Shown: positions 23,527-56,038 of the stretch, piece by piece
Numbering within the stretch: the stretch's first letter is position 1
Layout: the number at the start of each line of letters is the position of its first letter
From: an uncultured Geoanaerobacter sp.
Lineage (GTDB): Bacteria; Desulfobacterota; Desulfuromonadia; Geobacterales; DSM-12255
Assembly: GCA_964528055.1 (NCBI GenBank)
Contig: CAZGQM010000001.1
Span: forward strand, 365,690 to 429,689
Direction of reading: 5' to 3'
Length of the DNA: 64,000 nucleotides
Program-made: the position numbers and the translations under genes
The notes under the pieces: generated by a model
What the model was told of the DNA's origin: nothing
The model's input: the letters and a program-made list of their open reading frames with translations, nothing else
The model's database searches: none

Positions 23527-23544
23527 TTTTAAAATGAGATTATA

Positions 23545-24346: not shown

Positions 24347-24356
24347 CGAGGGGAGC

Positions 24357-24869: not shown

Positions 24870-25084
24870 TCAGGCGTTGCCAGAATCCGAAGATATATCT
24901 TCAAACTGTAAATTGAATTGAGATTTTTCCCATGGCTCAAACCCAAAACAAGCTAAATTACTTTCCAGGGTACCATGCGAAAGCGAACACATTAAAGATA
25001 AGTAAAATGATTTTTAACCGCTCTAGGGGTAAGGTGATTAACGGTAATATTGTAACTTTGAGAGGCAATATTGTTATTTCCCAG

Positions 25085-35288: not shown

Positions 35289-35317
35289 GGTTTAGTTAAT
35301 CAAATGGAGGCTGCATA

Positions 35318-37948
35318 ATGACCTCGATCAAGAAAAAACTCAGTTTCAGATCATCGGCTCTTGCGGACGATACCTTCGAAGTGGTGAGTTTCTCCGGTAC
35401 CGAAGGACTTTCACGACTGTACATCTTCGATATTTCGTTGGTAGCAGACAGTGACGAGATCGAACTGGAAAGCGTGATTCAGTCGCGGGCCAAACTGACG
35501 ATTCTCCGTGATGATGTTAATATCGTCTTTCACGGTATCCTCTCTGTATTTGAACAGATGGAGACCGCCCAGGGGCGCACCCGCTACCGCGCCGTCCTGA
35601 CCCCGGCCTTCTGGCGTCAGACCCTGACGCACCACAACCAGATCTTTCTTGACAAAACCTATCCGGAGATTATCGAAGCTGCTTTGAAAGACGGCGGGCT
35701 GACCAGCCTTGACTACCGTTTCAACCTGACCGGCACCTACGAGCTCCATGAATATATCTGCCAGTACAACGAGAGCCACTTCAACTTCATCTCGCGCCTG
35801 ATGGAGCGGGAGGGGATCTATTTCTACTTCGAGCAAGGAGCTGACAGCGAAAAACTCATTATAACCGATTCCTCTCAACTCCATTCGGTCATGGATGCCG
35901 GGATGAAGATGTATTATTCGCAGATATCAGGGCTGGACGAAACATCCCGCGAAGAGGTGATCAAGTCGCTCATCTGCAGCCAGAAAATACTTCCGGCGAG
36001 GGTACTGCTGAAGGATTACAACTACCGCAAACCTTTGCTGGATCTTGCAGTGGAAGCACCGGTTTCCGAACGGGGTCTTGGAGACGTTTTCATCTACGGA
36101 GAGCATTTCTCGACGCCGGAAGAGGGGAACCGTCTGGCCAGGGTGCGGGCCGAGGAGCTGAAATGCCGGGGCCGGGTTTACCTGGGGGAGAGCCTGATCC
36201 CGTACCTGCGGCCGGGGTACATCTTCGAGCTTGCCGGCCACAACCGCAACGATTTCAACATTTCGTACCTAACCACTGACATTTCGCACAACGGTGACCA
36301 GAGCTTCATGCTAACCGCCGGACTCGATGAGACAGCCACCGCCAGGGAGCTGTCACCGTATTACCGCAACAGCTTTACCGCCATCAACTCCGCCAGCCAG
36401 TTCCGCCCGGAACGGACCACCGGCAAGCCTCGCATTTCCGGCACTATCAACGCCCAGATAGACTCCGAAGGGAGCGGACAGTATGCCGAGATCGACAGGG
36501 AAGGGCGCTACAAGGTGCGTCTGCCGTTTGATCTGAGCGGCAGCAAAGAGGGGAAGGCGTCATCCTGGCTGCGCATGGCACAGCCCTATGCAGCGGCTGG
36601 CAACGAAACCGGCATGCACTTCCCGCTGCACAAGGGAACCGAGGTGCTGCTCACCTTTATCGACGGCGACCCGGACCGCCCCATCATCTCGGCGGCAGTG
36701 CCGAATCCGCAGTTCCCCAGCCCGATCAACGAGAACAACAGCTCGCAAAGCCGCATCAAGACCGCCGGCAACAACCTGTTCCATATGGAGGACCAGCAGG
36801 GGGGAGAACGGATACTGCTGCATACGCCAAAGGCCAACAGCTGGATCAGGTTGGGGACACCCAGTGACCAGCCAACCTTGGATCAAAGGGTAGCCAGCCT
36901 GGAGCAGAATGTTACGAATATCGGAGCTAAAATTTTTTCCAACGGAGGTTTTTCGGTTGAAGCTGCCTGGGAGAACAAGCTGCTTTACGGACAACAATTT
37001 CAGTTTTTGCTAGGATCGCGTAACGATGTGCTCCTGGGTACGGAACTGGCGGCAAAATTAGCCGCTAGCTTCAATATTTGCTTTGGAGTCGCAGCTGAGT
37101 TAGTTTTTCAAAACAAGATATTATTCAGTAAAGGCAGTAGTATTACACATACCAAAACCAATGATCTTGTCGCATCTGACTCTGTGGAGATTAAGGTAGG
37201 CACCGATCCCAAGGACATAAAGGAAATGGCAAAATGGTTCTGGAAAGGGCCAATCGTTGCTGGTCTAACTGCTCATTTTGTAACCTTAGTCGAAGGGATT
37301 ATTTCAGCTGAGAGTGAAGATCACAGAACAGGAGGTGCCATAGCCGCTGCAGCTCTAGCGTCACTGGCGGCAATTATGACGCAAATCCCTTTGCGAGGTT
37401 CTTGGAAGGAAAAAGATTTTTTTAATTTTGATGATACATCACCGTATCTATCCAGAGTGACTTTAAAGAAGGAATTTATAGATTTGAACTCACCAACTAT
37501 AAGGGTTGTAGCGGGAGAACTTAAACAAGGGGAAGGTGAACCCAAACTCGAACACGGCACAGCAGAGATTCGAGCTGACAGATCTCTCACTTTATCATCC
37601 TCGATTGTTTTAATTGAGGCTGAAGATGATCCCATCCTCCCGACAACGACGGTTTATGAGGGGGGTGTGTTGCTCAGAGCATCCAAGAAAATCAATGTCA
37701 TTTCTTATGATGATGATGTGAATATAACATCTGGCAAAAATAAAAAAGTAAATATCCAAGCTCCTGATGGTATAGCTTCCATAAAATCATCAAAAAATAC
37801 CGGACTAATAGCCGATAAAAACGATGTTACGTTGCAAGGAGAGACAGTTTTATTGGATGCTCAAAATATTAATCTGAATGCAAGAGAAGAAGTGAATATT
37901 TTTGGGAATAGTGTAAAAGTTAATGGAAAATTTATAAAACTTGCATAA
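35318..37948 (+). CDS. vgrG: T6SS spike protein VgrG (TssI) with an AT-rich ~350-aa C-terminal extension
   Basis: 876 aa. The gp27/gp5-like core includes FEVVSFSGTEGLSRLYIFDISL and GMHFPLHKGTEVLLTFIDGDPDRPII. The extension begins at about nt 36890. Confidence 0.9.
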   Translation: MTSIKKKLSFRSSALADDTFEVVSFSGTEGLSRLYIFDISLVADSDEIELESVIQSRAKLTILRDDVNIVFHGILSVFEQMETAQGRTRYRAVLTPAFWRQTLTHHNQIFLDKTYPEIIEAALKDGGLTSLDYRFNLTGTYELHEYICQYNESHFNFISRLMEREGIYFYFEQGADSEKLIITDSSQLHSVMDAGMKMYYSQISGLDETSREEVIKSLICSQKILPARVLLKDYNYRKPLLDLAVEAPVSERGLGDVFIYGEHFSTPEEGNRLARVRAEELKCRGRVYLGESLIPYLRPGYIFELAGHNRNDFNISYLTTDISHNGDQSFMLTAGLDETATARELSPYYRNSFTAINSASQFRPERTTGKPRISGTINAQIDSEGSGQYAEIDREGRYKVRLPFDLSGSKEGKASSWLRMAQPYAAAGNETGMHFPLHKGTEVLLTFIDGDPDRPIISAAVPNPQFPSPINENNSSQSRIKTAGNNLFHMEDQQGGERILLHTPKANSWIRLGTPSDQPTLDQRVASLEQNVTNIGAKIFSNGGFSVEAAWENKLLYGQQFQFLLGSRNDVLLGTELAAKLAASFNICFGVAAELVFQNKILFSKGSSITHTKTNDLVASDSVEIKVGTDPKDIKEMAKWFWKGPIVAGLTAHFVTLVEGIISAESEDHRTGGAIAAAALASLAAIMTQIPLRGSWKEKDFFNFDDTSPYLSRVTLKKEFIDLNSPTIRVVAGELKQGEGEPKLEHGTAEIRADRSLTLSSSIVLIEAEDDPILPTTTVYEGGVLLRASKKINVISYDDDVNITSGKNKKVNIQAPDGIASIKSSKNTGLIADKNDVTLQGETVLLDAQNINLNAREEVNIFGNSVKVNGKFIKLA

Positions 37949-38009
37949 GATTACACTGTTCTGAACTTTTTAGCGTCTCCTTACGCATATTCAGAAGAAA
38001 CGATTTGTC

Positions 38010-38945
38010 ATGATTGAACCCATTGAAATCTTGAATTCCGGGCAGTCCATCGAAGATGTTGATATGTCGGGCAGTTCCCTGTCCGGGCTCGAATTTACCG
38101 ACAGGGTCTTCGAGCGGGTATCCTTCCGCGAGTCCGATCTGTCCGGTTCAGTATTTGTCAGCTGCCAGTTCAGGGATACCGATTTCAGCAATGCAAACCT
38201 GAACGAAGTCGACTTCAGCCGCTCCGGCCTTTCGAACTGCCGGTTCAATGGTGCTTCTCTTTTCAACGCCACTCTGTCCGACTGCATCACCGGCAGGCTC
38301 GATTTCAGCAACGCCAACCTGGAGCGGTTCACCGTGATTGAAACCGCTCTGACCGGTGCGATCTTCAATAACACCAATTTGAAATATGCAATCTTTATCG
38401 GCATTGACCTGAACCGCGTGAAATTCCCCGACTGCAACTGCACCCTGGCGGTGTTCGACAAGGCTTCATTGCAGGAGGCCGATTTTTCCGGGGCTGACCT
38501 GTCGAAATGCGGCTTCAATGGGGCGATCCTTAACAATGCACGATTTGGCGGCGCCAAGGGGAAGTACGCGGTATTTTTTGAAATCCAGGGGGAGCGGGCG
38601 GATTTCAGCGTAGCTCAATTGCCGATGTCGAATTTTTCCAGAGCAAAACTGGATGGCGCTCTGTTTGGCGGCGCATCTATGGAGAAAGCGCTGTTTGTGG
38701 CAGCATCGCTGAAGAGTGCCGTCTTCAGCGGGGCGAAGCTGCCCTATGCCGATTTTTCCCGGGCGATCGTGACCGGCGCCGATTTTGCCAATGCCGATCT
38801 GTCAATGGCCAACATCCACCGGGCGAATTTTAACGACGCAAGGCTCACAGGAGCAAACACCAAAGGTATCCGGGAGACGGACAGGGTGCTGGCCGAAGGG
38901 GAGATGTGGGTTTCACCGATCAAACAGGAGAGAAATAATGGCTGA
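38010..38945 (+). CDS. Pentapeptide-repeat protein
   Basis: 311 aa, almost entirely A(D/N)(L/F)xx pentapeptide units (DLSGSVFVSCQFRDTDFSNANLNEVDFSRSGLSNCRF...). Confidence 0.85.
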   Translation: MIEPIEILNSGQSIEDVDMSGSSLSGLEFTDRVFERVSFRESDLSGSVFVSCQFRDTDFSNANLNEVDFSRSGLSNCRFNGASLFNATLSDCITGRLDFSNANLERFTVIETALTGAIFNNTNLKYAIFIGIDLNRVKFPDCNCTLAVFDKASLQEADFSGADLSKCGFNGAILNNARFGGAKGKYAVFFEIQGERADFSVAQLPMSNFSRAKLDGALFGGASMEKALFVAASLKSAVFSGAKLPYADFSRAIVTGADFANADLSMANIHRANFNDARLTGANTKGIRETDRVLAEGEMWVSPIKQERNNG

Positions 38946-39594
38946 TATACGCGATATAAATCTTTACCGGCGGCGTGAGGCAGCGGATACGATAATTCCC
39001 GGCGCAATCATGGATACGGCCCGTGTGGTGAAGCGCGAAGACGGCGGATTCCTGCTGGTGACCCCCGACACCCTGGCGCTGCGCGGCAGAAAAGCTGCCG
39101 GCTGCCTGCTGGAGCCGGAGGAGAACGATACGGTGCTGATCGCCCGCAACACTTCCAGCGGGGTGTACATTCTGACCGTGCTGGAACGGGGTGAATCTCC
39201 TGGCCGAATCGTACTGCCGACCGATACTACCATGGCAACTTCGGGCGGCAGCCTGAAGCTGGCAGGGGCACAAGCGACCGTTATCGAGTCGCCGCAGGTC
39301 ACACTTAGCGGAGCCCGTGGCGATCTGACTTTTGCAGAACTGGAGCTGACCGCAGGCACCACCAGGGCCAGAAGCGGTCGGCTGTCGCTGGTGGCAGCCA
39401 CCATCGATACTGTGGCTGAGCGGATTACCCAGCGGGTGAGGGACTGTTTCCGCCGGGTGAGCAGGATGGATTCCACAAAGGCGGGCCAGGTCAGGATCAG
39501 CGCGGAGAGCCGCTTCAGCGTGACAGCCGGAGATGCCGCTCTGACCGCACAGAGGGATGTGAAAATTGACGGTGACAAGATCAGGCTGGGCTGA
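38938..39594 (+). CDS. DUF3540-like protein (T6SS spike-module component)
   Basis: I chose the start at MADIRDINLYRR, which overlaps the preceding stop by 8 nt. Its position between the pentapeptide and DUF4150 genes is the canonical context. The family call is from memory. Confidence 0.55.
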   Translation: MADIRDINLYRRREAADTIIPGAIMDTARVVKREDGGFLLVTPDTLALRGRKAAGCLLEPEENDTVLIARNTSSGVYILTVLERGESPGRIVLPTDTTMATSGGSLKLAGAQATVIESPQVTLSGARGDLTFAELELTAGTTRARSGRLSLVAATIDTVAERITQRVRDCFRRVSRMDSTKAGQVRISAESRFSVTAGDAALTAQRDVKIDGDKIRLG

Positions 39595-39612: not shown

Positions 39613-40014
39613 ATGTTTGCCGCAACCAAAAAAGGGGGTATGGCCAACATAACCGCCCCTGATGTCTGCAAAACCACTGTCGGACCGGCTGTGGTCCCTA
39701 TCCCGTACCCGAATATAGCCCAGTTGCCAATGGCTGTCCCCACTGCCACCAAAGTGTTCATCGACGGGGCGCTTGCCCTTACCAAGGAATCGAAAATACC
39801 AAGTTCCAACGGTGACGAAGCTGGCGCTTCAGGAGGTGGAGGAGTGGTGTCCGCCAAGGTCATGGGCCCCACCCAGTTCGTCATGTCCAGCCAGAAGGTC
39901 AAGATCGAGGGGAAGCCGGCAGTGCGCTTGAATGACCTGTGCAAGCTTAACGATGGCAACACGGTGGGGATGCACGCTGCGCCTTCGCAATTAAAGGTCA
40001 TGATCATGAGCTGA
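39613..40014 (+). CDS. PAAR-like spike-tip protein (DUF4150 type)
   Basis: 133 aa. ITAPDVCKTTVGPAVVPIPYPNIA...KVFIDGALALTKESKIPSSNGDEAG...KVKIEGKPAVRLND fits the DUF4150 pattern. Confidence 0.7.
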   Translation: MFAATKKGGMANITAPDVCKTTVGPAVVPIPYPNIAQLPMAVPTATKVFIDGALALTKESKIPSSNGDEAGASGGGGVVSAKVMGPTQFVMSSQKVKIEGKPAVRLNDLCKLNDGNTVGMHAAPSQLKVMIMS

Positions 40015-40027: not shown

Positions 40028-40804
40028 ATGAACAAGCAACTCTGGCTTACCTCGCTGGCACCCGACCGGGCTATACCGTCTGCGGTGAGCGCCAAACTGC
40101 GCCCCTACGGATTCGACGTTGCGGGCTCAATCTGGAATGACGATATCGAGAGGATGGGGTGGCAGGAACCGCTACAAATGCTTGTCAATCCTTCCCTGGC
40201 TGGATGGCTGATTCTCACCACACCGGAAGAGCTGTTCAAGCCAACCGTACGCTACGGTCTTTCGCTACTTGCCATTTCAGTTGCCGCTTCCCGCCGATCC
40301 CTGCCGACATTTATCATCTCCTGCGCCGGTGCGCCGCCTGCGGTGAGCGAACTTCCGTCGCCATTTTTGACATCTATTCCGATTGCCATCACCGAACCGG
40401 CCCTGTGCGCCAGGATCGTGGCAAACACAAGCGTTCCTTCTGTCCCAGGGTCAAGCGACTACCGTATCGACATTATCGGTGATCAGCAGGTTGGACAATG
40501 GTTTGAAATAAGCGCTGCCAAGGGGTCATGGAACGGCGGCCTGTTAGGTGTCTGCGGCGGCGAGATCAATTTCCAGGCAGTAGGTCCCTCAGGGGCACTC
40601 CCTAAGGATACGGTGCTCAACTATCCGGTTCGGGGGATGCGACTTGCCACCGGAGACAGTGAGTTCATCGCCTGGGGGGTGCAGAACGGACTGCCTGAAG
40701 GGACCTCCTGTTTTACCCGCGTCAAGGGTATGCCTGCAGCGATAATGTTCGGGCAATTTCCAGAAGGGGACGAACCGGAACTGTACACGCTGAAGCTGAT
40801 CTAG
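40028..40804 (+). CDS. Hypothetical T6SS-linked protein (no recognisable motif, no signal peptide or TM segment)
   Basis: 258-aa ORF starting 13 nt after the PAAR-like gene, with a GGAG RBS. Confidence 0.5.
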   Translation: MNKQLWLTSLAPDRAIPSAVSAKLRPYGFDVAGSIWNDDIERMGWQEPLQMLVNPSLAGWLILTTPEELFKPTVRYGLSLLAISVAASRRSLPTFIISCAGAPPAVSELPSPFLTSIPIAITEPALCARIVANTSVPSVPGSSDYRIDIIGDQQVGQWFEISAAKGSWNGGLLGVCGGEINFQAVGPSGALPKDTVLNYPVRGMRLATGDSEFIAWGVQNGLPEGTSCFTRVKGMPAAIMFGQFPEGDEPELYTLKLI

Positions 40805-40812
40805 GAGGTCAT

Positions 40813-42255
40813 TTGCAGATACCGGCCACCCCTTTTCAGATAATCGCCTTTGCCCCTTTCCTCCCATCGGAAAGCGTCGGGAACTGCGGAACGTTCCAGC
40901 CGCTGGCGGTTCGGTCTGCGGACCATGGGCTGGCTGCGCTGCATCCTTCGCTCTACATCCCGCTCCCCAGATCCCTTTCCCCTGAGGGTGGCATTAGCCT
41001 GGAGTTCAGCGCCCTTGACGATTTCGAGCCGGCTTCGATCATCAGCCGTACTCCGTGGTTGAAGGCGCTGCGGGATATAAAAGACGAAAGAACCACAAAG
41101 GTTGAATCAGCCGGTACTGAGACATCTCTCGACAGTATCCTCAGCATGGTCGAGCTCCCCGGAACGGTAAAGGGGGGTGAAAAGCATTCCGTGGATGAGT
41201 CGAACGAGGCAGACATTATTCTCTCCGGGGTTTTGAACCGGATTTGTGATGATGAAGATTTCAGGAGGATGCTGGCGGCATGGCAGGGTGTCGCCTTTCT
41301 GTTCGAAAAGGGGGGTGCTGAACGGCTTCGACTTTACATTGTCCCGGTTGCAAGGGAAACCGCTGTTGATCTTCTCGAATCATGCGCCAGTTTTCTGGAC
41401 AATGACCCTCCTGACCTGATTCTTCTGGATGTCCCGTTTGACTCCACTCCGATCGGCATAAGGTTGCTGGAGTCAGCTTCACGCCTGGCGGAACGGTTGA
41501 TCTCTCCGGTAATCTGCTGGTGCGGCCCGGATTTCCTGCAACTGGACGATTGGTCGGGGATGAAGAATCTCCCCTATCTCCCGAATCACCTCGACGGTTT
41601 TACCTATGCCGGATGGAATGCTCAGAAGGGGCGGCCTGCGGCATTCTGGACCATTGCCGCCTGCAACCGTTTCCAGCCGAACCGTGTAGATTACGATGCA
41701 TCGCCAGCGGGAAAAACTGTCGGATGCAGCCACATCTATCTGGCACCGGTCTGGGCTGTAGCCGCACTGACTCTGCAGGCGTTTGCGCGGACCGGCAGCC
41801 CGACAGCTGTTTCCAGACAGATCCTGCATTTCAGGGATACCTCAGCCGAACCGTTTGCAATGCTTGAAACATCCTTTAGCGATGACCGTTCCCATCAACT
41901 GGTGAAGTGCGGCCTGCTACCCCTGATGCCGATTTCGGGAGGGGATGGCATCCGCCTGGCGTCAGCCGTAACTATCAATGGCGAACCGTTCCTCTCCCCC
42001 CTTACCCTTTCTACGATTATTCACACCCTAATCGGATTACGGCAAAACCATGGGCCTTGCGACAACCCGGAGAGTCTTGCCGCGAGCCTGCACGAAGCCT
42101 TTTCGAGTCATCCGCGACTCAAGGGGGCGGTTCACGACGGTACCATCGAATTCAGGGGCTCCGGACCCGATTCGGAAGACCGTGTAAGAATCGAGATAAC
42201 GGTTGATAACCGGAAATTCGGCGCTAGGATTATAAATTTTACATTTGATTGGTAA
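40813..42255 (+). CDS. Divergent fused TssB-like/TssC-like (sheath-like) protein
   Basis: 480 aa with a TTG start 4 nt after AGGAGG. The N-terminus parallels the in-window TssB (PFQIIAFAPF vs PLKLLVVGDF; ISLEFSALDDFEPASIISRTPWLKAL vs VNLKFDSLKDFDPDSIVQQVPDLKKM). The remainder parallels the in-window TssC (DEDFRRMLAAWQGVAFLFEK vs NADFQKMESSWRSLKFLVDR; LLESASRLAERLISPVICWCGPDFLQLDDWSGMKNLP vs LLQDLASVSAMSHAPFIASASARMFGLDDFSKLPDLK; YAGWNAQKG vs YAKWKAFRD). Confidence 0.55.
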   Translation: MQIPATPFQIIAFAPFLPSESVGNCGTFQPLAVRSADHGLAALHPSLYIPLPRSLSPEGGISLEFSALDDFEPASIISRTPWLKALRDIKDERTTKVESAGTETSLDSILSMVELPGTVKGGEKHSVDESNEADIILSGVLNRICDDEDFRRMLAAWQGVAFLFEKGGAERLRLYIVPVARETAVDLLESCASFLDNDPPDLILLDVPFDSTPIGIRLLESASRLAERLISPVICWCGPDFLQLDDWSGMKNLPYLPNHLDGFTYAGWNAQKGRPAAFWTIAACNRFQPNRVDYDASPAGKTVGCSHIYLAPVWAVAALTLQAFARTGSPTAVSRQILHFRDTSAEPFAMLETSFSDDRSHQLVKCGLLPLMPISGGDGIRLASAVTINGEPFLSPLTLSTIIHTLIGLRQNHGPCDNPESLAASLHEAFSSHPRLKGAVHDGTIEFRGSGPDSEDRVRIEITVDNRKFGARIINFTFDW

Positions 42256-42276: not shown

Positions 42277-44598
42277 ATGTATCGAATATTCTTGCTCATA
42301 CCGGCTTTTCTCCTGCTGTTGTCATGCTCAGCAGAAAAGGTGGTCCGCGGCCAGGATTCGGTGGCGATTTTCTCCCCTGCATTTAATTATGAAACCAACA
42401 AGATCATAGCGCTCCTCCCCTTTTCAAATTCCGGAAGAGGCGGCCTCAATTACCCGATCACCGAACGTTTTGCCGCAAATCTGATCTGGGCCGGTTTTAC
42501 GGTGACAGACCGGTCACAACTTGAGCAGACGGCTGCCAAAGAGAATATTAACCTTTCGGAAACGCCGCCCCGCGACCAACTGGCTGAACTGGGTAGGAGG
42601 CTTGGCGTTGGCATTATCGTGGTAGGGTCTTGCATCTACCGTCAGGAGGGGCGGCCAGATGATGAGGGGACCATTTCCATGATCTCCGCCCGATTTCTGG
42701 ATACCGCAAGCGGCGAGACCCTCTTGCACGCAACTACCCGACCTGACGGCATCATGCCGGTCACACGCGCCCTGGCTGCAGTGATTCGTAACAGTCTTCT
42801 GAATGACCTTTTCCGCAAAGGGAATGCAAGCTATGACATCAAAAAGTATTCCGAGGCCATTGACCATTTCACCGCATTGACAGGGCTGGAACCTTCGCTT
42901 GTCGAGGCATATCAGAACCGCGGGGCGGCGTATTCAAAAAACGGAGACAACATCAAGGCGCTGGCTGACTACGACCGGGCCATAGCACTGTACGAGTCGA
43001 AGAACCCACTTCCGCAAAGGCTTCTGAACTTTATCCAGGGACCGGTCAAGCAGCCTGAAAAAGGTGAACTGTATCTGAACCGGGGGATTATTCTTCTTAA
43101 ATCCGGAAAAACCCAGGCAGCCATCTCCGATTTCAACCGGGCGCTTGAGGCGGGAGGGGATCCGGCAACTGCTCATGCAAATCTCGGATACGCCCGTTTC
43201 AGGCTGAAAGAGCTCAAAAACTCGGTCATGGAGTATGACAAGGCGGTCAAGGCTGATCCGTCCCGGGCAGAGTTTTATTACCAGAGGGGCATTGTGCTTG
43301 AAGAGATCAATGTTCCGGACGCCATCAGGAACTATTCTCAGGCAATCAGCCTGGACCGCCGTTTCGCCCCTCCGCTTGCTGCACGCGCACGAGCCAACCT
43401 GAAACTCGGTTACTTTTATGACGCAATAAGGGATTACACACAGGCACTGGAGATTGAACCCGGAAACTCAGAATACCTTACCGGCAGAGGTGGAGCTTAT
43501 TTTCAGGCAAGGGATCATGAACGTGCCATTTCAGATTATTCCAGCGCCATCAAGGCAACCCCTGCAAACTGCCAAGCTTATATGGGGAGGGGTATCAGTT
43601 ACGCCGCGAATGGCGATACCATACAAGCGCGGGAAGATTTCGATCATCTGCTTTCTACAGGAACGTCCATGGCAGGAACTGTCTACCTGGAAAAAGGGAT
43701 ACTGATGGCAAAGTCAGGAAACTACAGTGAGGCTGTTGAAAACTTCAGCAAGGCGCTGGAAATTTCCGGCAACAATGCAGATGGTTATGCCCACCGCGGT
43801 ATGGCGTTTGAACGGATGGCGGAATACAGGAGTTCGGTGCTGGATTTCTCCCGAGCCCTTGAACTGAGGGCTGAGAAACCTCAGGATCTGTTCAACCGCG
43901 GATATTCAAGCATGCAGAGCGGGAAATATCGCCAGGCAATTGATGATTTCAGCAGGGCAGCCTCCCTTGATCCTGCCAATTCAGCGGTTTTCTCCAACAG
44001 GGGTTATGCTTACCGGCAGACCGGCAATTACAGCCAGTCAATAAACGATTACAGCCGTGCCCTTGCCCTGCTTCCCGGGGAGACCGACTCTCCGTATCAG
44101 CGGAACTATCCCGATGCCCGACTGAACCAGGTGGTTAAAGAGTTTCACCCTTATTCCATCTATTACAATCGCGGCTTGTCCTATCTGGCAACCGGCAGCT
44201 ACCGACCGGCAATTTCCGACTTTACCAAGGCGATCGAACTTTTTCCCGCCAGCGCCGATGCTTATACCCGACGAGGCATTGCGCTCCAGCAGTCGGGAGA
44301 GATGGACCGGGCGCTTTCAGACTATAACCGTGCCATAGAGCTGGATTCACGTCTTGCCGACGCTTACTTCGGCCGGGGAAGCTGGAGTGAACAGTCCGGC
44401 AGGTTTTCCGATGCGATTGCGGACTACACCAGGGCCATTGATATAATGCCTGATTTTTCCAGGGCATATTTCAGCCGGGGTCTGCTGAGGGTTCAGATGA
44501 ACCTTGAAGAGCCAGGTATTACCGATATTAGAGCAGCCGCTCGAATGAACCTTAAACAGGCAAGAGATTACCTGATGACCAGGGGGGCAGAGTGGTGA
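42277..44598 (+). CDS. Large TPR-repeat lipoprotein with a CsgG/LpoB-like N-terminal domain
   Basis: 773 aa. The lipobox is LLLLSC. The N-terminal region (IIALLPFSNSG...ITERFAANLIWAGFTVTDRSQLEQ...LGVGIIVVGS) resembles CsgG/LpoB-type lipoprotein domains. It is followed by about 15 TPR units (A..Y.RG.AY...G....AI.DY..A..L.P). Confidence 0.65.
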   Translation: MYRIFLLIPAFLLLLSCSAEKVVRGQDSVAIFSPAFNYETNKIIALLPFSNSGRGGLNYPITERFAANLIWAGFTVTDRSQLEQTAAKENINLSETPPRDQLAELGRRLGVGIIVVGSCIYRQEGRPDDEGTISMISARFLDTASGETLLHATTRPDGIMPVTRALAAVIRNSLLNDLFRKGNASYDIKKYSEAIDHFTALTGLEPSLVEAYQNRGAAYSKNGDNIKALADYDRAIALYESKNPLPQRLLNFIQGPVKQPEKGELYLNRGIILLKSGKTQAAISDFNRALEAGGDPATAHANLGYARFRLKELKNSVMEYDKAVKADPSRAEFYYQRGIVLEEINVPDAIRNYSQAISLDRRFAPPLAARARANLKLGYFYDAIRDYTQALEIEPGNSEYLTGRGGAYFQARDHERAISDYSSAIKATPANCQAYMGRGISYAANGDTIQAREDFDHLLSTGTSMAGTVYLEKGILMAKSGNYSEAVENFSKALEISGNNADGYAHRGMAFERMAEYRSSVLDFSRALELRAEKPQDLFNRGYSSMQSGKYRQAIDDFSRAASLDPANSAVFSNRGYAYRQTGNYSQSINDYSRALALLPGETDSPYQRNYPDARLNQVVKEFHPYSIYYNRGLSYLATGSYRPAISDFTKAIELFPASADAYTRRGIALQQSGEMDRALSDYNRAIELDSRLADAYFGRGSWSEQSGRFSDAIADYTRAIDIMPDFSRAYFSRGLLRVQMNLEEPGITDIRAAARMNLKQARDYLMTRGAEW

Positions 44599-44626: not shown

Positions 44627-44878
44627 ATGAAGATATTGTTTGCTGTTTCAGCTTTTCTCATGATTCACCTTTTTGCCGGATGCTCCCACAGGATAACCGG
44701 CCCCGGTCCGATCGACATTTCCACCATGCGAAAGGTTGAAGAGGGGTGCGCATGGTATATACTCGGTATCGGTCCTTTCGGAGAGGCGACTCTCATGCAG
44801 AAGCCCGACACAATCCAGTACACCGTTCACAACTATTTTTTCTACAGCTCTTTCTGTACTGCCGGGTATAACAGGTAA
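44627..44878 (+). CDS. Small lipoprotein (possibly TRL-like)
   Basis: 83 aa with lipobox LFAGC. The ILGIGPFGEA motif is reminiscent of TRL-type small lipoproteins (weak recollection). Confidence 0.45.
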   Translation: MKILFAVSAFLMIHLFAGCSHRITGPGPIDISTMRKVEEGCAWYILGIGPFGEATLMQKPDTIQYTVHNYFFYSSFCTAGYNR

Positions 44879-44879
44879 C

Positions 44880-45494
44880 GTGAGACAACTATCCTTCTTC
44901 ATATTTGTTCTGCTGCTGACTGCAACCGGCTGCTCAATGTTCTCCTCAAAGCCTCCCCCTCCCACCCCTTTGGAAGCTGCGAAGGAGGCGGCTGAGAAAG
45001 CCAGGGTTGCCAATGAGGTGCTGAAAAGGAACTATGCCGTGCCGCAGGTTAGGTGGACTTTCTCCGCCAAGGCGATCGAGATCCGTTTCAAGGCGGACGC
45101 CGGTCTGAACTATCATGACGATGAGCCGCATACTCTTGCGGTTGCGGTTTATCAGCTGAGCGATCCGAATGTCTTTACAAGTTATCGCGCCAGTCGCGAA
45201 AAACTGTCCGAAATCATGGACGCAAGGCGCTTTGATACCTCTGTAACCGCATTTGACCAGATCTTTATCCAGCCTGGAGAAGAACGTATCATCCGGTTGG
45301 ATCGAATGGAAAACAGCCGCTTTGTCGGAATTGTCGCAGGTTACTACCAGTCAGACCCGGACCAGGTTACCCGGCTCTTCGAGATTCCAGTTGTCATAGT
45401 CCCGGGCCAGCAGGAGCTGCTCTCCTCGCCTGGTTCGCTGAATGTCAATATCTTTGCAGGGAAGAACATGATTCAACAGTACGGGAGCAACTGA
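44880..45494 (+). CDS. tssJ: T6SS outer-membrane lipoprotein TssJ
   Basis: A GTG start gives VRQLSFFIFVLLLTATGCS (lipobox). LAVAVYQLSDPNVF...IFIQPGEE...RFVGIVAGYY fits the TssJ/SciN pattern. It lies directly upstream of tssK-L-M. Confidence 0.75.
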   Translation: MRQLSFFIFVLLLTATGCSMFSSKPPPPTPLEAAKEAAEKARVANEVLKRNYAVPQVRWTFSAKAIEIRFKADAGLNYHDDEPHTLAVAVYQLSDPNVFTSYRASREKLSEIMDARRFDTSVTAFDQIFIQPGEERIIRLDRMENSRFVGIVAGYYQSDPDQVTRLFEIPVVIVPGQQELLSSPGSLNVNIFAGKNMIQQYGSN

Positions 45495-45495
45495 A

Positions 45496-46884
45496 ATGGA
45501 ATTTTCACGGCCATTATTATGGCGACACGGACTTTTTCTGCAACCCCAGCATCTCCAGCTCAACGATCAGTTTCTGCAATCGCGCCTAGTTCCTTTATGG
45601 GAATATCTGAAGCCCTATTTCTGGGGCATTGCTGAGGTGAGCATTCAGGAGTCGGCTCTTGCCACAATGTCATTCGAGATTCTCAACGGGAAATTCCTTT
45701 TCCCGGGCGGGGTATATGCCATTTTTCCGGGTAATGCGATGGTGGAACGTCGCTCTTTCGATGAAGCATGGGAAAACCGGGACAAGCCCCTCACTGTCTA
45801 TCTGGGGCTGCGCAAGATGAGTCAGCTGGAGCCCAACGTTACCGTCGTGGATGAGATGAAGGGGCTTGCCGGCATTACGACCCGTTATATCGCATCATCA
45901 ACAGCTGAGGAGGTAAGGGATCTCTACCTGAACGGGCAGACCGGACAGGTACAGGGGATGCTGTATCATCTCCGGCTGTTCTGGGAAACCGAGAAGGAGA
46001 TGCTGGACAACTATGAGATCATTCCGATTGCCCGGCTTGAGAGGTTGACTGAGAGGGTGCGCCTGCTCCCCGGCTTCATACCTCCGGTTCTGTCGTTACG
46101 TTCATCAGACCGTCTCTCCTCAATCCTCAGGGATATCCGTGACAGGCTTGCCGCACGGGGACGACAGCTGGAAGGGTACAAGAGGCTGAAAAACCTGGAG
46201 ACAGGAGATACGGAATCACGTTACACCTCATACATCATGGCGCTCTCCTGCCTGAACCGGCACATACCGGTTCTGTCTCAGATGTGCGAATCAGGTGCCA
46301 TTAATCCTTATGAAGCATATCAGGCGTTGAGACTGCTGATAGGAGAACTCTCGACCTTCTCCACGAGCATAGACGTCATGGGTGAATCGCTGGATGGGGA
46401 TACTTTGCCCCCGTACAGTCACACCTCGCTCTGTGAGTGCTTCACCGGTCTCCAGAATGCCATAGAGACAGCCCTGGCGGATTTTGTCACAGGCCCCGAA
46501 TACATAATTCAGCTGGAAAGGGATGGCGATACCTTTATCGCGGAAAAACTCAGCAGCGACATCTTTCAACCTCGCAATCATTATTATCTGGTACTCTGGA
46601 CATTGCTTGACCAGAAACAGATTCTCGACGCCCTGACCCGTCTGGCAAAGGTTACTTCCGGTTCGTATCTGCAGACAATCGTAAAACGTGCACTGGCAGG
46701 CATTGAACTCAGCTATCTGGCTCAACCTCCGCGTGAGGCTCCCGGCCGTTCCAACTGCTATTTCTTCCGGCTGAACGATAACGAAAAGCAGTGGGAATCG
46801 GTTGTAAGCGACCAGAGCATTGCTATGCACTGGGATGGCGCTCCTGAAGAACTCAAGGTTGAACTGATGGTTATCCGGAGATAG
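45496..46884 (+). CDS. tssK: T6SS baseplate protein TssK
   Basis: The N-terminus PLLWRHGLFLQPQHLQ is the TssK hallmark. It is 462 aa. Confidence 0.9.
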   Translation: MEFSRPLLWRHGLFLQPQHLQLNDQFLQSRLVPLWEYLKPYFWGIAEVSIQESALATMSFEILNGKFLFPGGVYAIFPGNAMVERRSFDEAWENRDKPLTVYLGLRKMSQLEPNVTVVDEMKGLAGITTRYIASSTAEEVRDLYLNGQTGQVQGMLYHLRLFWETEKEMLDNYEIIPIARLERLTERVRLLPGFIPPVLSLRSSDRLSSILRDIRDRLAARGRQLEGYKRLKNLETGDTESRYTSYIMALSCLNRHIPVLSQMCESGAINPYEAYQALRLLIGELSTFSTSIDVMGESLDGDTLPPYSHTSLCECFTGLQNAIETALADFVTGPEYIIQLERDGDTFIAEKLSSDIFQPRNHYYLVLWTLLDQKQILDALTRLAKVTSGSYLQTIVKRALAGIELSYLAQPPREAPGRSNCYFFRLNDNEKQWESVVSDQSIAMHWDGAPEELKVELMVIRR

Positions 46885-46885
46885 C

Positions 46886-47566
46886 ATGCGGCTATTTGAC
46901 TGTTTCGTCAAACCCCTGGCATATACAGCGTACGTTGTGGGGATAAGCGCAGATAATCCTGTACCGATTTCCCGGGTAACAACAGTCATCCGCAACCTGC
47001 TGGATGAAAGCAATAACATGGCGCTCCAGAACGGATTTTCACAACAGGAGTTCGAAGAGGCCCGTTTCGCGGTCTGCGCCTGGATTGATGAGGCGATTCT
47101 ATGCTCCGACTTGCCGGATTCCAGTCAATGGATGGGTGAATTGCTGCAACGTAAACTTTATGCGACCACAAGGGCCGGTGACGAGTTTTTTCAGAGAATG
47201 GCCGGACTCCATGATACCGACCGCCAGGTTCGGGATGTTTATTATCACTGTCTGGCCCTCGAATTCAAGGGACGCTACTTCTCACCTGACATGAAAGAGG
47301 GTCTAGAATTAATCAAAAAACGTGAATATTCAACCCTTGCAAATGGGGACAGCATGCTTGTGAAAAGCAAACTCATGGGCTTTTTCCCCGAAGCATATCC
47401 CCCTAATTCAGTGCCGCGTATCCGGAGGTTGTTCCTTTCCCGGATATCCTATGTTACCCTGCTCTCGTTGCTTCTACCCCTCATCTTGGCTGTTCTGACC
47501 TATATATCCTACAGTAGACACCTTGGCGGCATGGTTGAAAACCTGATCCGGCTGGAGCTCAAATAA
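46886..47566 (+). CDS. tssL: T6SS membrane-complex protein TssL (DotU family), with no peptidoglycan-binding extension
   Basis: 226 aa. ARFAVCAWIDEAIL...LQRKLYATTRAGDEFF is followed by a single C-terminal TM segment. Confidence 0.85.
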   Translation: MRLFDCFVKPLAYTAYVVGISADNPVPISRVTTVIRNLLDESNNMALQNGFSQQEFEEARFAVCAWIDEAILCSDLPDSSQWMGELLQRKLYATTRAGDEFFQRMAGLHDTDRQVRDVYYHCLALEFKGRYFSPDMKEGLELIKKREYSTLANGDSMLVKSKLMGFFPEAYPPNSVPRIRRLFLSRISYVTLLSLLLPLILAVLTYISYSRHLGGMVENLIRLELK

Positions 47567-47567
47567 G

Positions 47568-50500
47568 ATGAAGCTTCTGCTTAAACTGCTCAAAATCATC
47601 TTTATTATCAGTGTTGTAACCGGCACGATTTTCGGCGCCTTCTGGATGATTTACATAAAGAATTGGCCTTATTGGACCGGAGTATCCCTCTTCCTTATTG
47701 TCATATCCCTTGCGGTTGGCTGGCATATCCTCAAAAAAATATTGCTGCGCCGCAGGGAGCAGCAGTATGTCAAGCAGGTTATCGAACAGTATAAACCTCT
47801 TGAAGAGGTCACTGACAATAAGTCCGAGCAGCAGATCCTAAGCCTTGAAAGGCAATGGGCGGATTCTCTAGATATTCTCAAACAATCGCATTTGAAAAAA
47901 CAGGGGGACCCCCTGTATCTGCTCCCCTGGTACCTGGTTCTCGGGGCAACCGGCTGTGGAAAGACATCTGCGCTCCGTAGCGCACGCCTGTCATCTCCGT
48001 TTCCCGAAGCGCCACGCCCCGCCGGCTCAGGAACCCGGTTCTGCGACTGGTGGTACACCGAACATGCCATAATTCTGGATACTGCCGGTAAATATTCGAA
48101 TCCTCTCATGGAACCTGCCGAGCGAGATGAATGGCAGCGCCTCCTCTCCCTGCTTCTGGCTGCTCGAAAAAAGGAGCCTCTCAATGGTCTGGTCGTTGCA
48201 GTAGCCGCAGACCAGCTTCTGAAGAGTGATCGGGACAGCCTTGGGGAAGAGGGGAGGGCTATCCGGCTGAGAATTGATGAAATGATGCAGGTAATGGGCG
48301 CAAAAATTCCGGTATATCTCCTGATAACAAAATGCGACCAGGTATACGGCATTGATCAGCTTGCCAGGAATCTGCCGGAATCGTTCTTCAAGCAGCCCAT
48401 GGGGGTCGTAAATGACGACCTGGAAAAGCCGATTAGTGATTTCATCGATTTCACGCTGGACAGAATCAGCGAGCGTCTCAAAGATTTGAGATTCATGCTG
48501 CTCGACAAGGCCCAGGGTGACAAAACCGGTCTCATGCTCCTCGCCGAGGAGATTCGAACACTGCAGCCCGGACTAGAGAGCTTCATGCTTGGCGTATTCC
48601 GGGCAAATCCTTACCAGGAATCGCCGATAATGCGCGGGATTTTTTTCTCCAGCGCCCAACAGAGCGGAACACCGGTTTCCCGCTATCTTCAGCGGCTTGA
48701 TTATGCCGGAGACTCTCCCCCCCCTGGGGGGGGGAATGATATTCTGCTCGCATCATCAGGTACTGCAGCTGTTCCTTCGATACGGAATGCGGCTACAGAT
48801 ATCACTTTCATGAATATTCTTCCAGGAACAAGTCAGGGACTTTTTCTGTTCGATTTTTTCGACTGGGTTCTTACTTCAGACCGCTGGTTATTCCGGCCGC
48901 TAAAGTCTGAGGTACGGCGTTTTCGCTTCAGCTGGGGAACAGGGATGATATCCTGGATGACGCTGCTCGTCGGTCTGCTTGGACTTGTCAGTACTTCATA
49001 CATGCTTAACAAGCATGTAATCAGTGAATATAATGCCGAATTCAAGCAGCCGACGTATCTGACCGAAAACCTGCTGGACGATATCATAATTCTGGACCGT
49101 TTTCGCACGGTCATACTCAAGATGGAAGAGCGCAACAAAGGGTGGTGGGTGCCCCGATTTGGACTTGATCAGAGTGAACAACTGGTAATCAAGTTGAAGA
49201 AGGATTACTGCGCACTTCTCAGAAAGTACATTTTCAGCGGGATGAACCGGAAGCTTGATGAGGGTGCCGCTGGAATAACATCCGAGACTCCGGGGGGGGA
49301 ACGGGGCGCATATGTGGCTAATATTGTAAGCCGGCTGCAGTTTATGAATGCCAGACTGGAAGGGAAAGATCTGGAATTCATGAAAACTCTTCCACCTCCG
49401 TCGGGTGCCTTCCTCATGTTGATAGACAGCAATATAACCCCTGAAGTAGCGAAGCAGTACCAGGAATGCTACCTTTATTATTCGGCCTGGCAGGAGGACA
49501 ACACCCCGATAGTCGTTGCCAAACAGAAACTGACCATGCTTCTGGGGAAGATTCTTGTCGGTCCTAAAGGGAATTATGACTTCAACTGGACTCTGAACTG
49601 GATAAACTCAACGGAAATAGATAAACGCATAACATTGCGCGATTTCTGGGATGGCAGCGAAGAGACCGAATATGAGTATATAGAGCCATGCTTCACCCTG
49701 GAGGGGAAAAAAAAGCTGGATTATTTCCTGACCCAGATTTCCCGGGTTGCCGACAGCAGTTCAACGCTTGATGAACGGATCAAGCGTTTCATGAACGATT
49801 ACGAAAAGCAGTACATATCGGCCTGGGAGGAGTTCGCCACCGCTTTTACAAGGGGGGAGAACGCCTTTAAGTCCAGCCGCGATATGCTCAACCAGGCTGC
49901 CAATATCGGAATTGGGAAAATCCCGGCTGAACTCTTCATCGAAAGAATGGTTAAAGAACTTGAACCATTTTCCCGGAATGCAAATACCCCCCAATGGCTG
50001 AAGCTTGCGATTGCGCATGACAAGATTCACCGGCAGGCGCATGAAACGGAATTCTTAAAGCAAGCCTCCGGTTTAAGCAAGATGACCGGTGGTGTTCTTG
50101 AATCAGGCAAGCAACTTTTGAATGAGATAAAATCAAAAAAGGTTGAACTGCCGGACAGAAGCAAGCCCCAGAAACAGCTGGATCTGGTCAAGGCTTATGC
50201 GGAATTCAGTAAATCGCTTCAGGATATGGCCAGGGGGATAACTACCAACGGTGCTGCCATGCGCCTTGCCACCGAAATATTTTCAGGGGGAGGGGCGCCA
50301 CAGGCGGCCCAGGCAGGAGATTCTGCCGGAACTGCGAAGCCATCCCCGTTTTCCAGGGTGCAGGAAACTTACAAATCTTTTCAGGCTCAGATGCGAGATG
50401 TGGGGGATGATAAAATCTATTGGGACCTGATCAATTCGTCACTCAGGTTTTTTGCCATGACAGCCGCAAGAGAAGCGGAATGTTCATTACAGGAAAAATG

Positions 50501-51194
50501 GCAATCACAGGTGTTGGCTGAGACCAGTGCTGCCTCTGAATCCAGCTTGCAGGATCTGCTGTTCGGCCCCCAGGGGACGGTCTGGAGTTTTGTCAAAGGA
50601 ACTGCCTCGCCATTTCTCAAGGGGGGTGCCCAGGGGTACACGTCGACTTCGGTAATGGGGCAGCAGGTACGCTTCAGGCAGGATTTCATTGAATTCATTA
50701 CAAAGGGAAATGTCGGCCGCCAGAAGATCAAGGATAGTTATACTGTCAGAATCAAGGCTTATCCTGTTCATGTAAACAGGGAGGCAAAACCGAAACCCCA
50801 GGCGGCATATCTATCGCTTGCATGTGGCGATGATCTCCAATCGCTCAATAATATGAATTTCCAGGCTCAAAAGTCTTTCAAGTGGGGGGTTAAGAATTGC
50901 GGTGACACCATATTGCGGATAAAATTCGGATCTGTGACTCTGGAACGGAACTATTCCGGCGCGCGTGGGTTCATCAATTTCCTTACAGACTTCAAACGCG
51001 GTGAACGTACCTTCACACCTGAAGATTTCCCGGAACATGAAAATGATCTCAAAGCGATGAGCGTGCAGCAGATACGGATTAAATATCTTTTTGAAGGGGA
51101 GCGTGATCTGCTGAACCTGCCCGATTATGCCCCGCATGCTGCACCACCGGTAATATCCTCATGCCAGCAACGAGGTCATAATGATAATCCGTGA
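47568..51194 (+). CDS. tssM: T6SS membrane-complex protein TssM (IcmF family)
   Basis: 1208 aa with N-terminal TM segments, Walker A LGATGCGKTSAL and an IcmF-like periplasmic C-terminus. Confidence 0.9.
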   Translation: MKLLLKLLKIIFIISVVTGTIFGAFWMIYIKNWPYWTGVSLFLIVISLAVGWHILKKILLRRREQQYVKQVIEQYKPLEEVTDNKSEQQILSLERQWADSLDILKQSHLKKQGDPLYLLPWYLVLGATGCGKTSALRSARLSSPFPEAPRPAGSGTRFCDWWYTEHAIILDTAGKYSNPLMEPAERDEWQRLLSLLLAARKKEPLNGLVVAVAADQLLKSDRDSLGEEGRAIRLRIDEMMQVMGAKIPVYLLITKCDQVYGIDQLARNLPESFFKQPMGVVNDDLEKPISDFIDFTLDRISERLKDLRFMLLDKAQGDKTGLMLLAEEIRTLQPGLESFMLGVFRANPYQESPIMRGIFFSSAQQSGTPVSRYLQRLDYAGDSPPPGGGNDILLASSGTAAVPSIRNAATDITFMNILPGTSQGLFLFDFFDWVLTSDRWLFRPLKSEVRRFRFSWGTGMISWMTLLVGLLGLVSTSYMLNKHVISEYNAEFKQPTYLTENLLDDIIILDRFRTVILKMEERNKGWWVPRFGLDQSEQLVIKLKKDYCALLRKYIFSGMNRKLDEGAAGITSETPGGERGAYVANIVSRLQFMNARLEGKDLEFMKTLPPPSGAFLMLIDSNITPEVAKQYQECYLYYSAWQEDNTPIVVAKQKLTMLLGKILVGPKGNYDFNWTLNWINSTEIDKRITLRDFWDGSEETEYEYIEPCFTLEGKKKLDYFLTQISRVADSSSTLDERIKRFMNDYEKQYISAWEEFATAFTRGENAFKSSRDMLNQAANIGIGKIPAELFIERMVKELEPFSRNANTPQWLKLAIAHDKIHRQAHETEFLKQASGLSKMTGGVLESGKQLLNEIKSKKVELPDRSKPQKQLDLVKAYAEFSKSLQDMARGITTNGAAMRLATEIFSGGGAPQAAQAGDSAGTAKPSPFSRVQETYKSFQAQMRDVGDDKIYWDLINSSLRFFAMTAAREAECSLQEKWQSQVLAETSAASESSLQDLLFGPQGTVWSFVKGTASPFLKGGAQGYTSTSVMGQQVRFRQDFIEFITKGNVGRQKIKDSYTVRIKAYPVHVNREAKPKPQAAYLSLACGDDLQSLNNMNFQAQKSFKWGVKNCGDTILRIKFGSVTLERNYSGARGFINFLTDFKRGERTFTPEDFPEHENDLKAMSVQQIRIKYLFEGERDLLNLPDYAPHAAPPVISSCQQRGHNDNP

Positions 51195-52779: not shown

Positions 52780-52972
52780 ACAGGGTTGTGAATCAGCTTT
52801 ACTCTTGGAATAACTCGCGTTCAGGAGTTGCTTTCGTCGTTTTATAGGCTATTATTTCAATGATTTTCAAGTATAGGTGTTAAATTTTAATATTTGATCT
52901 GGACTTGGTGTATTTATCAATTGTGTGCCGGATTGCTGCAGTTTCTAATATCACATGTCAGGAGGGTCTTGT

Positions 52973-55516: not shown

Positions 55517-55536
55517 AACCAGACAGTTATCCCGCT

Positions 55537-55573
55537 CCCTCTTCATGCACCCATGGAGAGGGCGTTTATTTCT
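55537..55573 (+). terminator. Hairpin plus T-rich tract after hcp (possible attenuator/terminator)
   Basis: The stem is ccctcttc / ggagaggg (8 bp, one G:U) with a 10-nt loop, followed by cgTTTaTTTcT. Confidence 0.45.
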
Positions 55574-55600
55574 CCCTGAGTTCACCAGAATACCCATGAT

Positions 55601-56026: not shown

Positions 56027-56038
56027 GGGACGGTCTAC

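Follow-up and report, generated by a model that had tools for sequence, protein, structure and literature searches.

The stretch of DNA analysed here (64,000 nucleotides of contig CAZGQM010000001.1 from an uncultured Geoanaerobacter sp.; hereafter the window) carries a type VI secretion system (T6SS) cluster, within which a 480-aa open reading frame (ORF) at 40813..42255 almost certainly specifies a true paralogue of the T6SS sheath protomer in a single chain, with a TssB core followed by TssC. The homology, architecture and synteny of this fused protein, and the size of the family to which it belongs, are established. It represents a widespread, sheath-derived T6SS accessory family that has yet to be named, is accompanied by a conserved partner protein and shows a one-armed architecture. 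A preliminary description, drawn from by-eye alignment, had proposed that the protein is a compact and much diverged single chain in which a TssB-like part is joined to a TssC-like part, that it is additional to the canonical TssB and TssC of the same cluster and that its homology to the two subunits runs in that order; Pfam, hhalign and Foldseek bear this out.

The fused protein was compared with the Pfam models of both sheath subunits. VipB (PF05943) gave 48.9 bits (E 6e-13) against a gathering score of 27, the best stretch spanning only profile positions 92–168 of 301. For VipA (PF05591) the score was 22.9 bits (E 8e-5) against a gathering score of 24, so that of the two Pfam similarities anticipated in the preliminary description the first clears its threshold and the second falls marginally short. 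Elsewhere in the family, one relative reaches 30.1 bits with VipA, above the gathering score, and other relatives carry a precomputed PF05591 match. The Pfam matches along the fused protein are ordered TssB then TssC. With the NCBIfam equivalog models the protein scored 35.4 bits for TssC (TIGR03355, cutoff 271.5, compared with 701.8 for the TssC of the window) and 15 bits for TssB (TIGR03358, cutoff 97).

Profile–profile alignment using hhalign extended the similarity over most of the chain. The family profile matched the TssC of the window with a probability of 98.5% (E 1.8e-15), fused residues 130–466 lying on TssC 70–473, and the TssB of the window with a probability of 92% (E 6e-7), residues 5–97 lying on TssB 34–133, in agreement with the TssB-like pairing previously read by eye over residues ~5–95. 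A broader family profile aligned to 12 canonical TssC sequences with an E of 9.6e-36 (fused 84–479 on TssC 6–489) and to the Rhizobium TssB, ImpB, with an E of 2.6e-11 (fused 1–94 on ImpB 28–128). Every by-eye pairing that the profile alignments print, including that at the C-terminus, is reproduced in them, and the estimated shortfall of about 180 residues holds (171 aa for TssB and 492 aa for TssC, together 663 aa, against 480 aa).

The fold is consistent with this assignment. The AlphaFold2 model of the fused protein, with a predicted local distance difference test score (pLDDT) of 74.6 and a predicted template modelling score (pTM) of 0.76, was searched using Foldseek, and the best matches, as the preliminary description had expected, were the VipB/TssC chains of four T6SS sheath structures (E ~5e-13, template modelling score ~0.5; among them 3j9g, 5n8n_B and 5urw), followed by the sheaths of phages and extracellular contractile injection systems (eCIS) at E ~1e-5. 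A phmmer search of PDB sequences likewise matched TssC1/VipB. Over the aligned residues the protein is ~15–20% identical to TssC.

In the Pseudomonas aeruginosa sheath, two strands of TssC accept two donors, namely the C-terminal strand of an adjacent TssC and, from an adjacent TssB, its N-terminal strand (PMC5807055). Both donor arms are fixed to the adjoining ring on the baseplate side, with TssE proposed as the acceptor for the first ring (PMC5813253), and lengthening the N-terminal linker of VipA by two residues abolishes contraction (PMC5797969). The alignments of the fused protein enter TssB at residue 34, and ImpB at residue 28; PFQIIAFAPF of the fused protein corresponds to ELPLKLLVVGDF of TssB, fused residue 5 lying on TssB residue 34. 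Because the chain begins at the strand that follows the TssB linker, the N-terminal donor arm is absent. As judged from these alignments, both the TssB N-terminal donor strand and its linker are missing from the fused protein, and the same pattern is seen in the listed N-termini of the family: by eye, a hydrophobic strand occurs within ~15–25 residues of the N-terminus in most listed members, and a strict regular expression finds it at positions 6–15 in 57 of 131. The translation start is consistent with this. The start codon is the TTG at 40813, the AGGAGG sequence that precedes it overlaps the stop codon of the upstream 258-aa gene, and orthologues begin MQIP... at the equivalent position. 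No in-frame start codon lies 5' of 40813 in the window, and the protein therefore has no hidden N-terminal extension.

At the other end of the chain, the family-versus-TssC profile alignment places the fused C-terminus on the TssC terminus '...SSFTLSLVG'. The family tails form an alternating strand ending in W in 42 of 43 aligned members (the remaining one ends in WS), and W480 is an invariant column of the family alignment. On this alignment, the C-terminal donor strand for the handshake is kept, and the β-strands that accept the arms of neighbours are kept as well. A family-level alignment shows ~23 residues (TssC 33–57) to be deleted with the segment before them retained, and the deleted segment is probably the domain-3 helix that packs on the protomer below in TssC1; together with this helix, ~70 residues of TssC loops are deleted. 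The same alignment, by reaching TssC residue 6, overturned a reading in which the whole TssC N-terminus (1–69) was missing, and showed an internal deletion in its place. The Desulfobulbus sub-lineage, that of the window protein, has lost a further ~35 residues (the 'WPxLP' segment) relative to the 520–530 aa majority, which may be the counterpart of the C-terminal region of TssB. The presence of a TPR neighbour (described below) falls in the same sub-lineage as this loss, and the two changes may be connected.

Between the TssB-like and TssC-like parts lies a predicted disordered linker containing a linear motif, SLDSILSMVELPG. Its family consensus is VDDILSMVAxP, with DDILSMV invariant in one family alignment (A4), and it is conserved across all classes of genomic context. 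The family-versus-TssC alignment sets the motif on the TssC helix 'SLLDEIVxAT'. TssC's N-terminal helix is bound by the N-domain of ClpV in E. coli (PMC5048182), and the same interaction in Vibrio cholerae is cited in that paper. The match, although by itself only suggestive, suggests that the linker motif resembles the ClpV-binding helix of TssC. No Thr conserved only in the FHA-linked members was seen within the linker.

The distribution of the family was examined by a hidden Markov model (HMM) search covering 1.84 billion representatives (clusters at 50% identity), which returned 3693 matches at E<=1e-3 and 241 clusters at E<=1e-30, mostly full-length at 480–530 aa. Identity over the whole length ranges from 25 to 58% across the family. 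Close orthologues (38–58% identity, 467–487 aa) occur in Desulfobulbus, Desulfobulbaceae, Desulfobulbales and one Geobacteraceae metagenome-assembled genome (MAG), and a word-index homology search with a broad alignment (A2) found the same 27 close relatives and none further. We define the family by a single chain of 450–560 aa that starts at the TssB strand, carries the linker [LVI]D[DSN]IL[SDN]MV, ends in phi-x-phi-x-W and is encoded beside canonical TssBC; the window protein has all of these features, and the adjacent 258-aa partner gene as well. The names that members carry are few and generic ('contractile sheath large subunit', 'sheath domain-containing protein', 'ImpC' or 'hypothetical protein'), and of these 'contractile sheath large subunit' and 'ImpC' claim too much. 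The preliminary description knew of no described role for such a protein, and we likewise found no dedicated model matching the family in Pfam, NCBIfam or PADLOC and no paper on a fused TssB–TssC accessory protein in the full-text literature, a search that mostly does not cover subscription journals, so that an earlier description is possible.

Among the close orthologues the gene order is identical: DUF2169-pentapeptide, VgrG, pentapeptide, DUF3540, PAAR-like, 258-aa, fused, ~775-aa TPR and TssJ-K-L-M-A. For a wider view, 80 more metagenome loci were fetched and all loci were scored with HMMs built from the T6SS proteins of the window and from neighbours seen earlier, giving 77 distinct family loci; as the additional loci were found through alignment A4, the sample is biased towards members with DDILSMV or EAAWRG motifs. 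T6SS core genes flank 45 of the 77 loci and a PAAR-like gene is present at 32. Canonical TssB or TssC was seen in the flanks of 11 loci besides the window, and never, among the 77, did the fused gene take the place of TssB/TssC. A common order is TssA-B-C-Hcp-F-G-ClpV-fused-(258-aa)-VgrG-DUF2169-PAAR-like. Directly 5' of the fused gene, in loci with at least 1.5 kb of upstream sequence, we found clpV (12), a double-FHA gene (11), the 258-aa gene (10) or a PAAR-like gene (7). Ser/Thr (Hanks-type) kinase and PP2C genes lie near double-FHA/fused pairs, and 9 of the 77 loci have a kinase and/or PP2C gene in their flanks; the double-FHA proteins are most like TagH, but at 66–82 bits against a TagH cutoff of 120. 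Among the loci sampled, the ~775-aa TPR neighbour was seen only in clusters of the Desulfobulbus and Geobacteraceae types (10 of the 77; L003–L013 and L083).

Loci without a T6SS gene within 10 kb were also recorded (L016 and L020, also L034, L040, L065–L067 and L071–L074). Two of them, L016 and L020, carry a recurring envelope-signalling set in which a double-FHA gene is joined by a Pkinase-PEGA kinase, PP2C and an AhpC-TPR protein whose C-terminal domain is of the FlgT_C or CsgG type, and L020 has an additional, separate CsgG-like gene. A distinct, longer class of fused TssB–TssC proteins (570–650 aa), with much stronger VipA/VipB scores, was seen in L090, L086, L088, L089, L093 and L099. 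In L090, two tandem copies (7968–11812) follow TPR-TssK-TssL-TssM, and canonical TssB/TssC was not seen in the 21 kb of that locus; in L093, FHA-SLT, PP2C and kinase genes come after a single copy. The longer proteins may be true single-chain sheaths of divergent or reduced T6SSs.

The fused gene is an accessory, not a core, part of this type of T6SS. The nearest plasmid-borne relatives of the window TssC in cultured bacteria are those of Caballeronia (64%), Proteus (57%) and Campylobacter (52%), and a tblastn search of 72,556 plasmids with a family member yielded canonical tssB/tssC alone, at ~22% identity, without any full-length member. That close plasmid T6SS relatives exist without a full-length family member is what argues for accessory status. 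A reading of the locus as a defence system was unsupported: PADLOC gave no match to the fused protein, to the partner or to the double-FHA and fused proteins of a relative, and only weak, generic TPR-model matches to the TPR protein.

The 258-aa protein encoded immediately upstream is an obligate-looking companion of the fused gene. In the window, the PAAR-like gene, the partner gene and the fused gene follow one another with gaps of 13 and 8 nt. The partner is 36–39% identical to the products of genes beside family members that are themselves only ~28% identical to the fused protein of the window, and its gene is present at 42 of the 77 loci (23 of the 31 whose flanks span 3 kb or more on each side). 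Its 302 homologues are, among those listed, nearly all 256–263 aa long, come mostly from Desulfobacterota MAGs and are labelled 'hypothetical protein' wherever named; no match was found in Pfam, NCBIfam, PADLOC or PDB sequences. The AlphaFold2 model (pLDDT 91.8) has an N-terminal five-stranded α/β domain and a C-terminal β-sandwich, and Foldseek gave weak TIR-like and CheY-like matches (best E 8e-4); the α/β domain can be described as TIR-, CheY- or flavodoxin-like. A tube-like or gp25-like component is excluded by this α/β plus β-sandwich model and by Foldseek matches that lie elsewhere. Of 36 partner genes whose immediate 5' neighbour was determined, 14 follow a PAAR or PAAR-like gene and 11 the fused gene, and these neighbours constitute a three-way genetic link between spike tip, partner and fused paralogue.

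How the fused protein might act follows from which parts of the protomer it has kept. With its acceptor strands and C-terminal donor arm retained, it should be able to plug into the TssBC lattice; with the N-terminal arm and the TssC 33–57 helix missing, it should not form the normal, doubly cross-linked contractile lattice and, judging from its sequence, probably cannot build a normal sheath. The family more probably governs the start or the dismantling of the sheath than its construction. The predicted plug-in ability, the missing arm, the status as an extra gene, the linkage to spike-tip, clpV and FHA genes and the precedent of Pvc4 in eCIS together favour a role at the baseplate-proximal end of the sheath. 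Our preferred reading, held tentatively, is that the fused protein is a low-copy sheath-end or initiator subunit at this end, or an assembly checkpoint, addressable by ClpV. The protein would dock at the sheath end in low copy number and, together with the 258-aa partner, would act as a first-layer initiator or checkpoint between the loaded spike and baseplate on one side and the first TssBC ring on the other, an arrangement that would be analogous to the first-layer paralogue Pvc4. The disordered linker would display a TssC-like ClpV helix, such that ClpV could bind or remove the protein at any time, and in lineages with a double-FHA gene and a nearby Ser/Thr kinase and PP2C this sheath-end step might come under phosphorylation control. 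Docking, position within the machine, ClpV binding and phospho-control are here inferred. Fha proteins have been reported to scaffold early T6SS assembly (preprint 10.1101/2023.12.21.572528). A bolder formulation, which we regard as possible though somewhat doubtful, is that the one-armed single-chain paralogue and its partner form a specialised terminal sheath layer whose insertion and removal are controlled, in some lineages, by FHA-dependent phosphorylation and by ClpV. If true, this layer would be the physical checkpoint through which the loading of the spike is coupled to polymerisation of the sheath, an element never described for a T6SS.

Several observations weigh against a ClpV-addressable, baseplate-proximal subunit. 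Canonical T6SS sheaths are initiated by TssE alone, and since TssE is encoded in the window cluster (55601–56026) an extra initiator layer is not required in principle. The retained strands could equally serve a role at the distal end. When the linker motif was scored on its own against the TssC helix, the score of 17.2 (P 0.004) lay above all 30 of 30 column shuffles, yet the reversed control reached 16.3, making the match weak; no co-variation of the motif with the TssC helix of the same cluster was seen, and the motif could instead bind the 258-aa partner. A minority of family copies stand amid housekeeping genes, at least 10 kb from any T6SS gene. The window contains no FHA, kinase or PP2C gene, and phospho-control is therefore not applicable at this locus.

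Other placements of the protein must be considered alongside this one. The preliminary description had suggested a sheath initiator or cap, a regulator of sheath polymerisation or a decoy for ClpV, candidates that the present evidence sharpens. Protomer arms point towards the baseplate and new subunits add distally by means of their arms (PMC5813253); since the fused protein keeps a C-terminal arm, it might act as a distal cap or terminator, docking through this single arm on the growing distal ring and, for want of the lateral N-terminal link, slowing or stopping elongation, with its exposed helix pre-positioning ClpV for disassembly of the sheath. The ClpV-helix-like motif, the position of the gene directly after clpV in 12 loci and a V. 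cholerae distal-end density of unresolved composition (PMC5813253) are all compatible with such a cap. We nevertheless consider it unlikely, as the retained acceptor strands leave no obvious block to addition on top, the linkage to PAAR-like and FHA genes points to initiation and the clusters already encode a long TssA (NCBIfam), the E. coli TssA having been localised to the growing sheath's distal end (PMC5813253). Much the same low probability attaches to a soluble regulator or decoy, a monomeric mimic that would bind ClpV-N, free TssB/TssC arms or an FHA protein and so set the threshold for polymerisation or disassembly. A simple peptide decoy would have no need of the conserved C-terminal strand, terminal Trp and acceptor strands, and it is the whole 480-aa fold that is conserved, at 25–58% identity; the conserved ClpV-helix-like motif in a disordered linker, the operons with double-FHA, kinase and PP2C genes in other lineages, the orphan copies distant from any T6SS gene and the finding, cited in PMC5807055, that ClpV prevents non-productive tubule formation (Kapitein et al., 2013) would all suit this role.

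A second bulk sheath, in which the fused protein polymerises alone or co-polymerises with TssBC into an alternative sheath, is improbable. The sheath fold found by Foldseek, the fact that phages and eCIS as a rule build their sheaths from single chains and the precedent of an essential, non-redundant paralogue, TssC40/ImpD (PMC3702570), speak for it; the N-terminal donor arm is missing family-wide, however, the domain-3 helix and ~70 residues of TssC loops are deleted, identity to TssC is low, and the family was never seen to replace TssB/TssC and does not belong to the ImpD lineage. Equally hard to credit is a spike adaptor or cargo, in which the fused protein and the 258-aa protein would help to load, or would ride on, the VgrG/PAAR-like tip. 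Here the adjoining PAAR-like, VgrG and DUF2169 modules of many loci and the weak TIR-like N-terminal fold of the partner have to be set against the uniform length and good conservation of both proteins, which are unlike those of polymorphic effectors, against a sheath fold without known cargo role and against the many loci in which the gene sits behind clpV or an FHA gene; a toxin or immunity signature was not found. Finally, that the similarity is due to chance, or that the gene is a functionless, decaying duplicate, is refuted: the low identity to TssB/TssC is all that would favour it, whereas profile E-values reach ~1e-35, hundreds of full-length homologues share invariant residues and conserved synteny, and a strong ribosome-binding site precedes the start.

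How a T6SS starts, stops and dismantles its sheath is still poorly understood, as is the input of spike and effector loading, and of the Fha/kinase pathway, into sheath decisions. The fused family is a testable candidate for a control point of this kind, missing one of the two cross-linking arms and keeping a possible handle for ClpV, and genetic linkage connects it with PAAR-like, clpV and FHA/kinase genes. If the preferred reading is true, T6SSs, like extracellular injection systems, use specialised sheath paralogues. The features of the window are collected in Table 1.

Table 1. Coordinates of the fused gene, its parts and the surrounding T6SS genes (positions in the window).
Feature	Coordinates	Strand	Basis or remarks
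Fused TssB–TssC paralogue gene	40813..42255	+	480 aa; ORF call, Pfam VipB/VipA, hhalign, Foldseek, syntenic orthologues
Shine–Dalgarno AGGAGG	40803..40808	+	4 nt before TTG 40813; read from sequence
TssB-like segment, aa 1–97; two strands and a helix, begins at PFQIIAFAPF	40813..41103	+	hhalign
Predicted disordered linker, aa 95–130	41095..41202	+	AlphaFold2 pLDDT <50
Linear motif, aa 105–117	41125..41163	+	Collinear with the ClpV-binding N-terminal helix of TssC
TssC-like body, aa 130–480, shortened by deletions relative to TssC	41200..42252	+	hhalign, Foldseek, phmmer
C-terminal strand GARIINFTFDW, counterpart of the TssC C-terminal donor strand	42220..42252	+	Profile alignment
Spike module: DUF2169-pentapeptide protein, VgrG, pentapeptide protein, DUF3540	32667..39594	+	Pfam
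PAAR-like (DUF4150) spike-tip gene, directly 5' of the partner gene	39613..40014	+	Pfam Tox-PAAR-like, E 1e-37
258-aa partner gene; N-terminal α/β domain, C-terminal β-sandwich	40028..40804	+	Homologues beside distant family members; AlphaFold2
773-aa TPR protein gene, directly 3' of the fused gene	42277..44598	+	Pfam TPR families
TssJ, TssK, TssL, TssM, TssA	44736..52779	+	Pfam, NCBIfam
Canonical TssB	52955..53470	+	NCBIfam TIGR03358, 175 bits, above cutoff
Canonical TssC	53473..54951	+	NCBIfam TIGR03355, 701.8 bits, above cutoff
Hcp, TssE (55601–56026), TssF, TssG, ClpV (58785–61430)	55016..61430	+	Pfam

Some further observations concern the rest of the window. The DUF3540 gene (38785–39594) was called as a 269-aa ORF with a TTG start that overlaps the end of the pentapeptide gene; its homologues are 218–228 aa long and the Pfam match begins at residue 81, and the true start is probably near 38945. 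On the minus strand, 2079–11465 holds a candidate defence/DNA-modification set with full-length PADLOC matches to PLD_Helicase, DUF1156 methyltransferase, DUF3780 and DUF499. The DUF1156 methyltransferase is split into two ORFs (7073–7798, profile positions 2–177; 4791–7031, profile positions 199–944) and may be frameshifted or interrupted. The region 15294–25690 encodes a 1502-aa RHS-repeat protein, followed by a serine resolvase, a DprA-like protein (DNA_processg_A) and a truncated-looking Mg-chelatase/ComM-like ORF, and could be a mobile island with a T6SS-type toxin ~13 kb upstream of the T6SS cluster. Between 26025 and 29403, on the minus strand and 3–6 kb upstream of the cluster, lie genes for CHASE2-HD signalling, OmpA-family and FecR-domain proteins; three transporter-type genes separate this set, which could be a sensory input, from the T6SS cluster.

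We know of no specialised first sheath layer described for any T6SS. In eCIS, the gp25-like adaptor and the main sheath are separated by a layer of Pvc4, described as a sheath initiator and connected through β-strand handshakes (PMC12546770). The fused protein shares the sheath fold with Pvc4/Afp4, Foldseek matching PVC, AFP and Streptomyces CIS chains at E ~2e-5; unlike them, it is clearly of T6SS (TssB/TssC) descent, and the likeness would be one of functional analogy only. The threonine-phosphorylation control of T6SS by PpkA/PppA/Fha1-TagH has a parallel in those other members of the family whose genes share an operon with an FHA gene and have a Hanks-type kinase and a PP2C gene close by. 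That FHA protein differs in having two FHA domains and in scoring below the TagH cutoff, and the window differs in having none of these genes.

TssC40/ImpD of Agrobacterium/Rhizobium is the only described second sheath gene that we found in the literature searched. It is essential for Hcp secretion and non-redundant with the main TssC (TssC41), with its structural role undefined (PMC3702570), and, like the fused gene, it is an extra sheath-like gene inside a T6SS cluster. In a Rhizobium locus (L101), ImpD is 36% identical to ImpC, is without the first ~55 residues at the N-terminus and contains nothing that corresponds to TssB. Assignment of the fused family to the ImpD lineage was rejected, ImpD being TssC-only and the family being no closer to it than to ImpC (hhalign E 1e-16 to ImpD versus 5e-26 to ImpC); the two are therefore separate lineages and independent inventions.

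Compared with canonical TssB/TssC (VipA/VipB, HsiB1/HsiC1), the fused protein is a single chain without the TssB donor strand and linker, the TssC 33–57 helix and several loops, it ends in Trp, it falls far below the NCBIfam equivalog cutoffs and it is encoded besides the canonical pair; unlike TssB, which is a separate small subunit, its TssB-like part lies in the same ORF as the TssC-like part. It is nevertheless homologous to the canonical pair along nearly all of its chain, the order of the parts and the fold being unchanged. The acceptor strands, the ExxWRG-type motif and the C-terminal donor strand are all retained, and a motif lies where TssC has its ClpV-binding helix.

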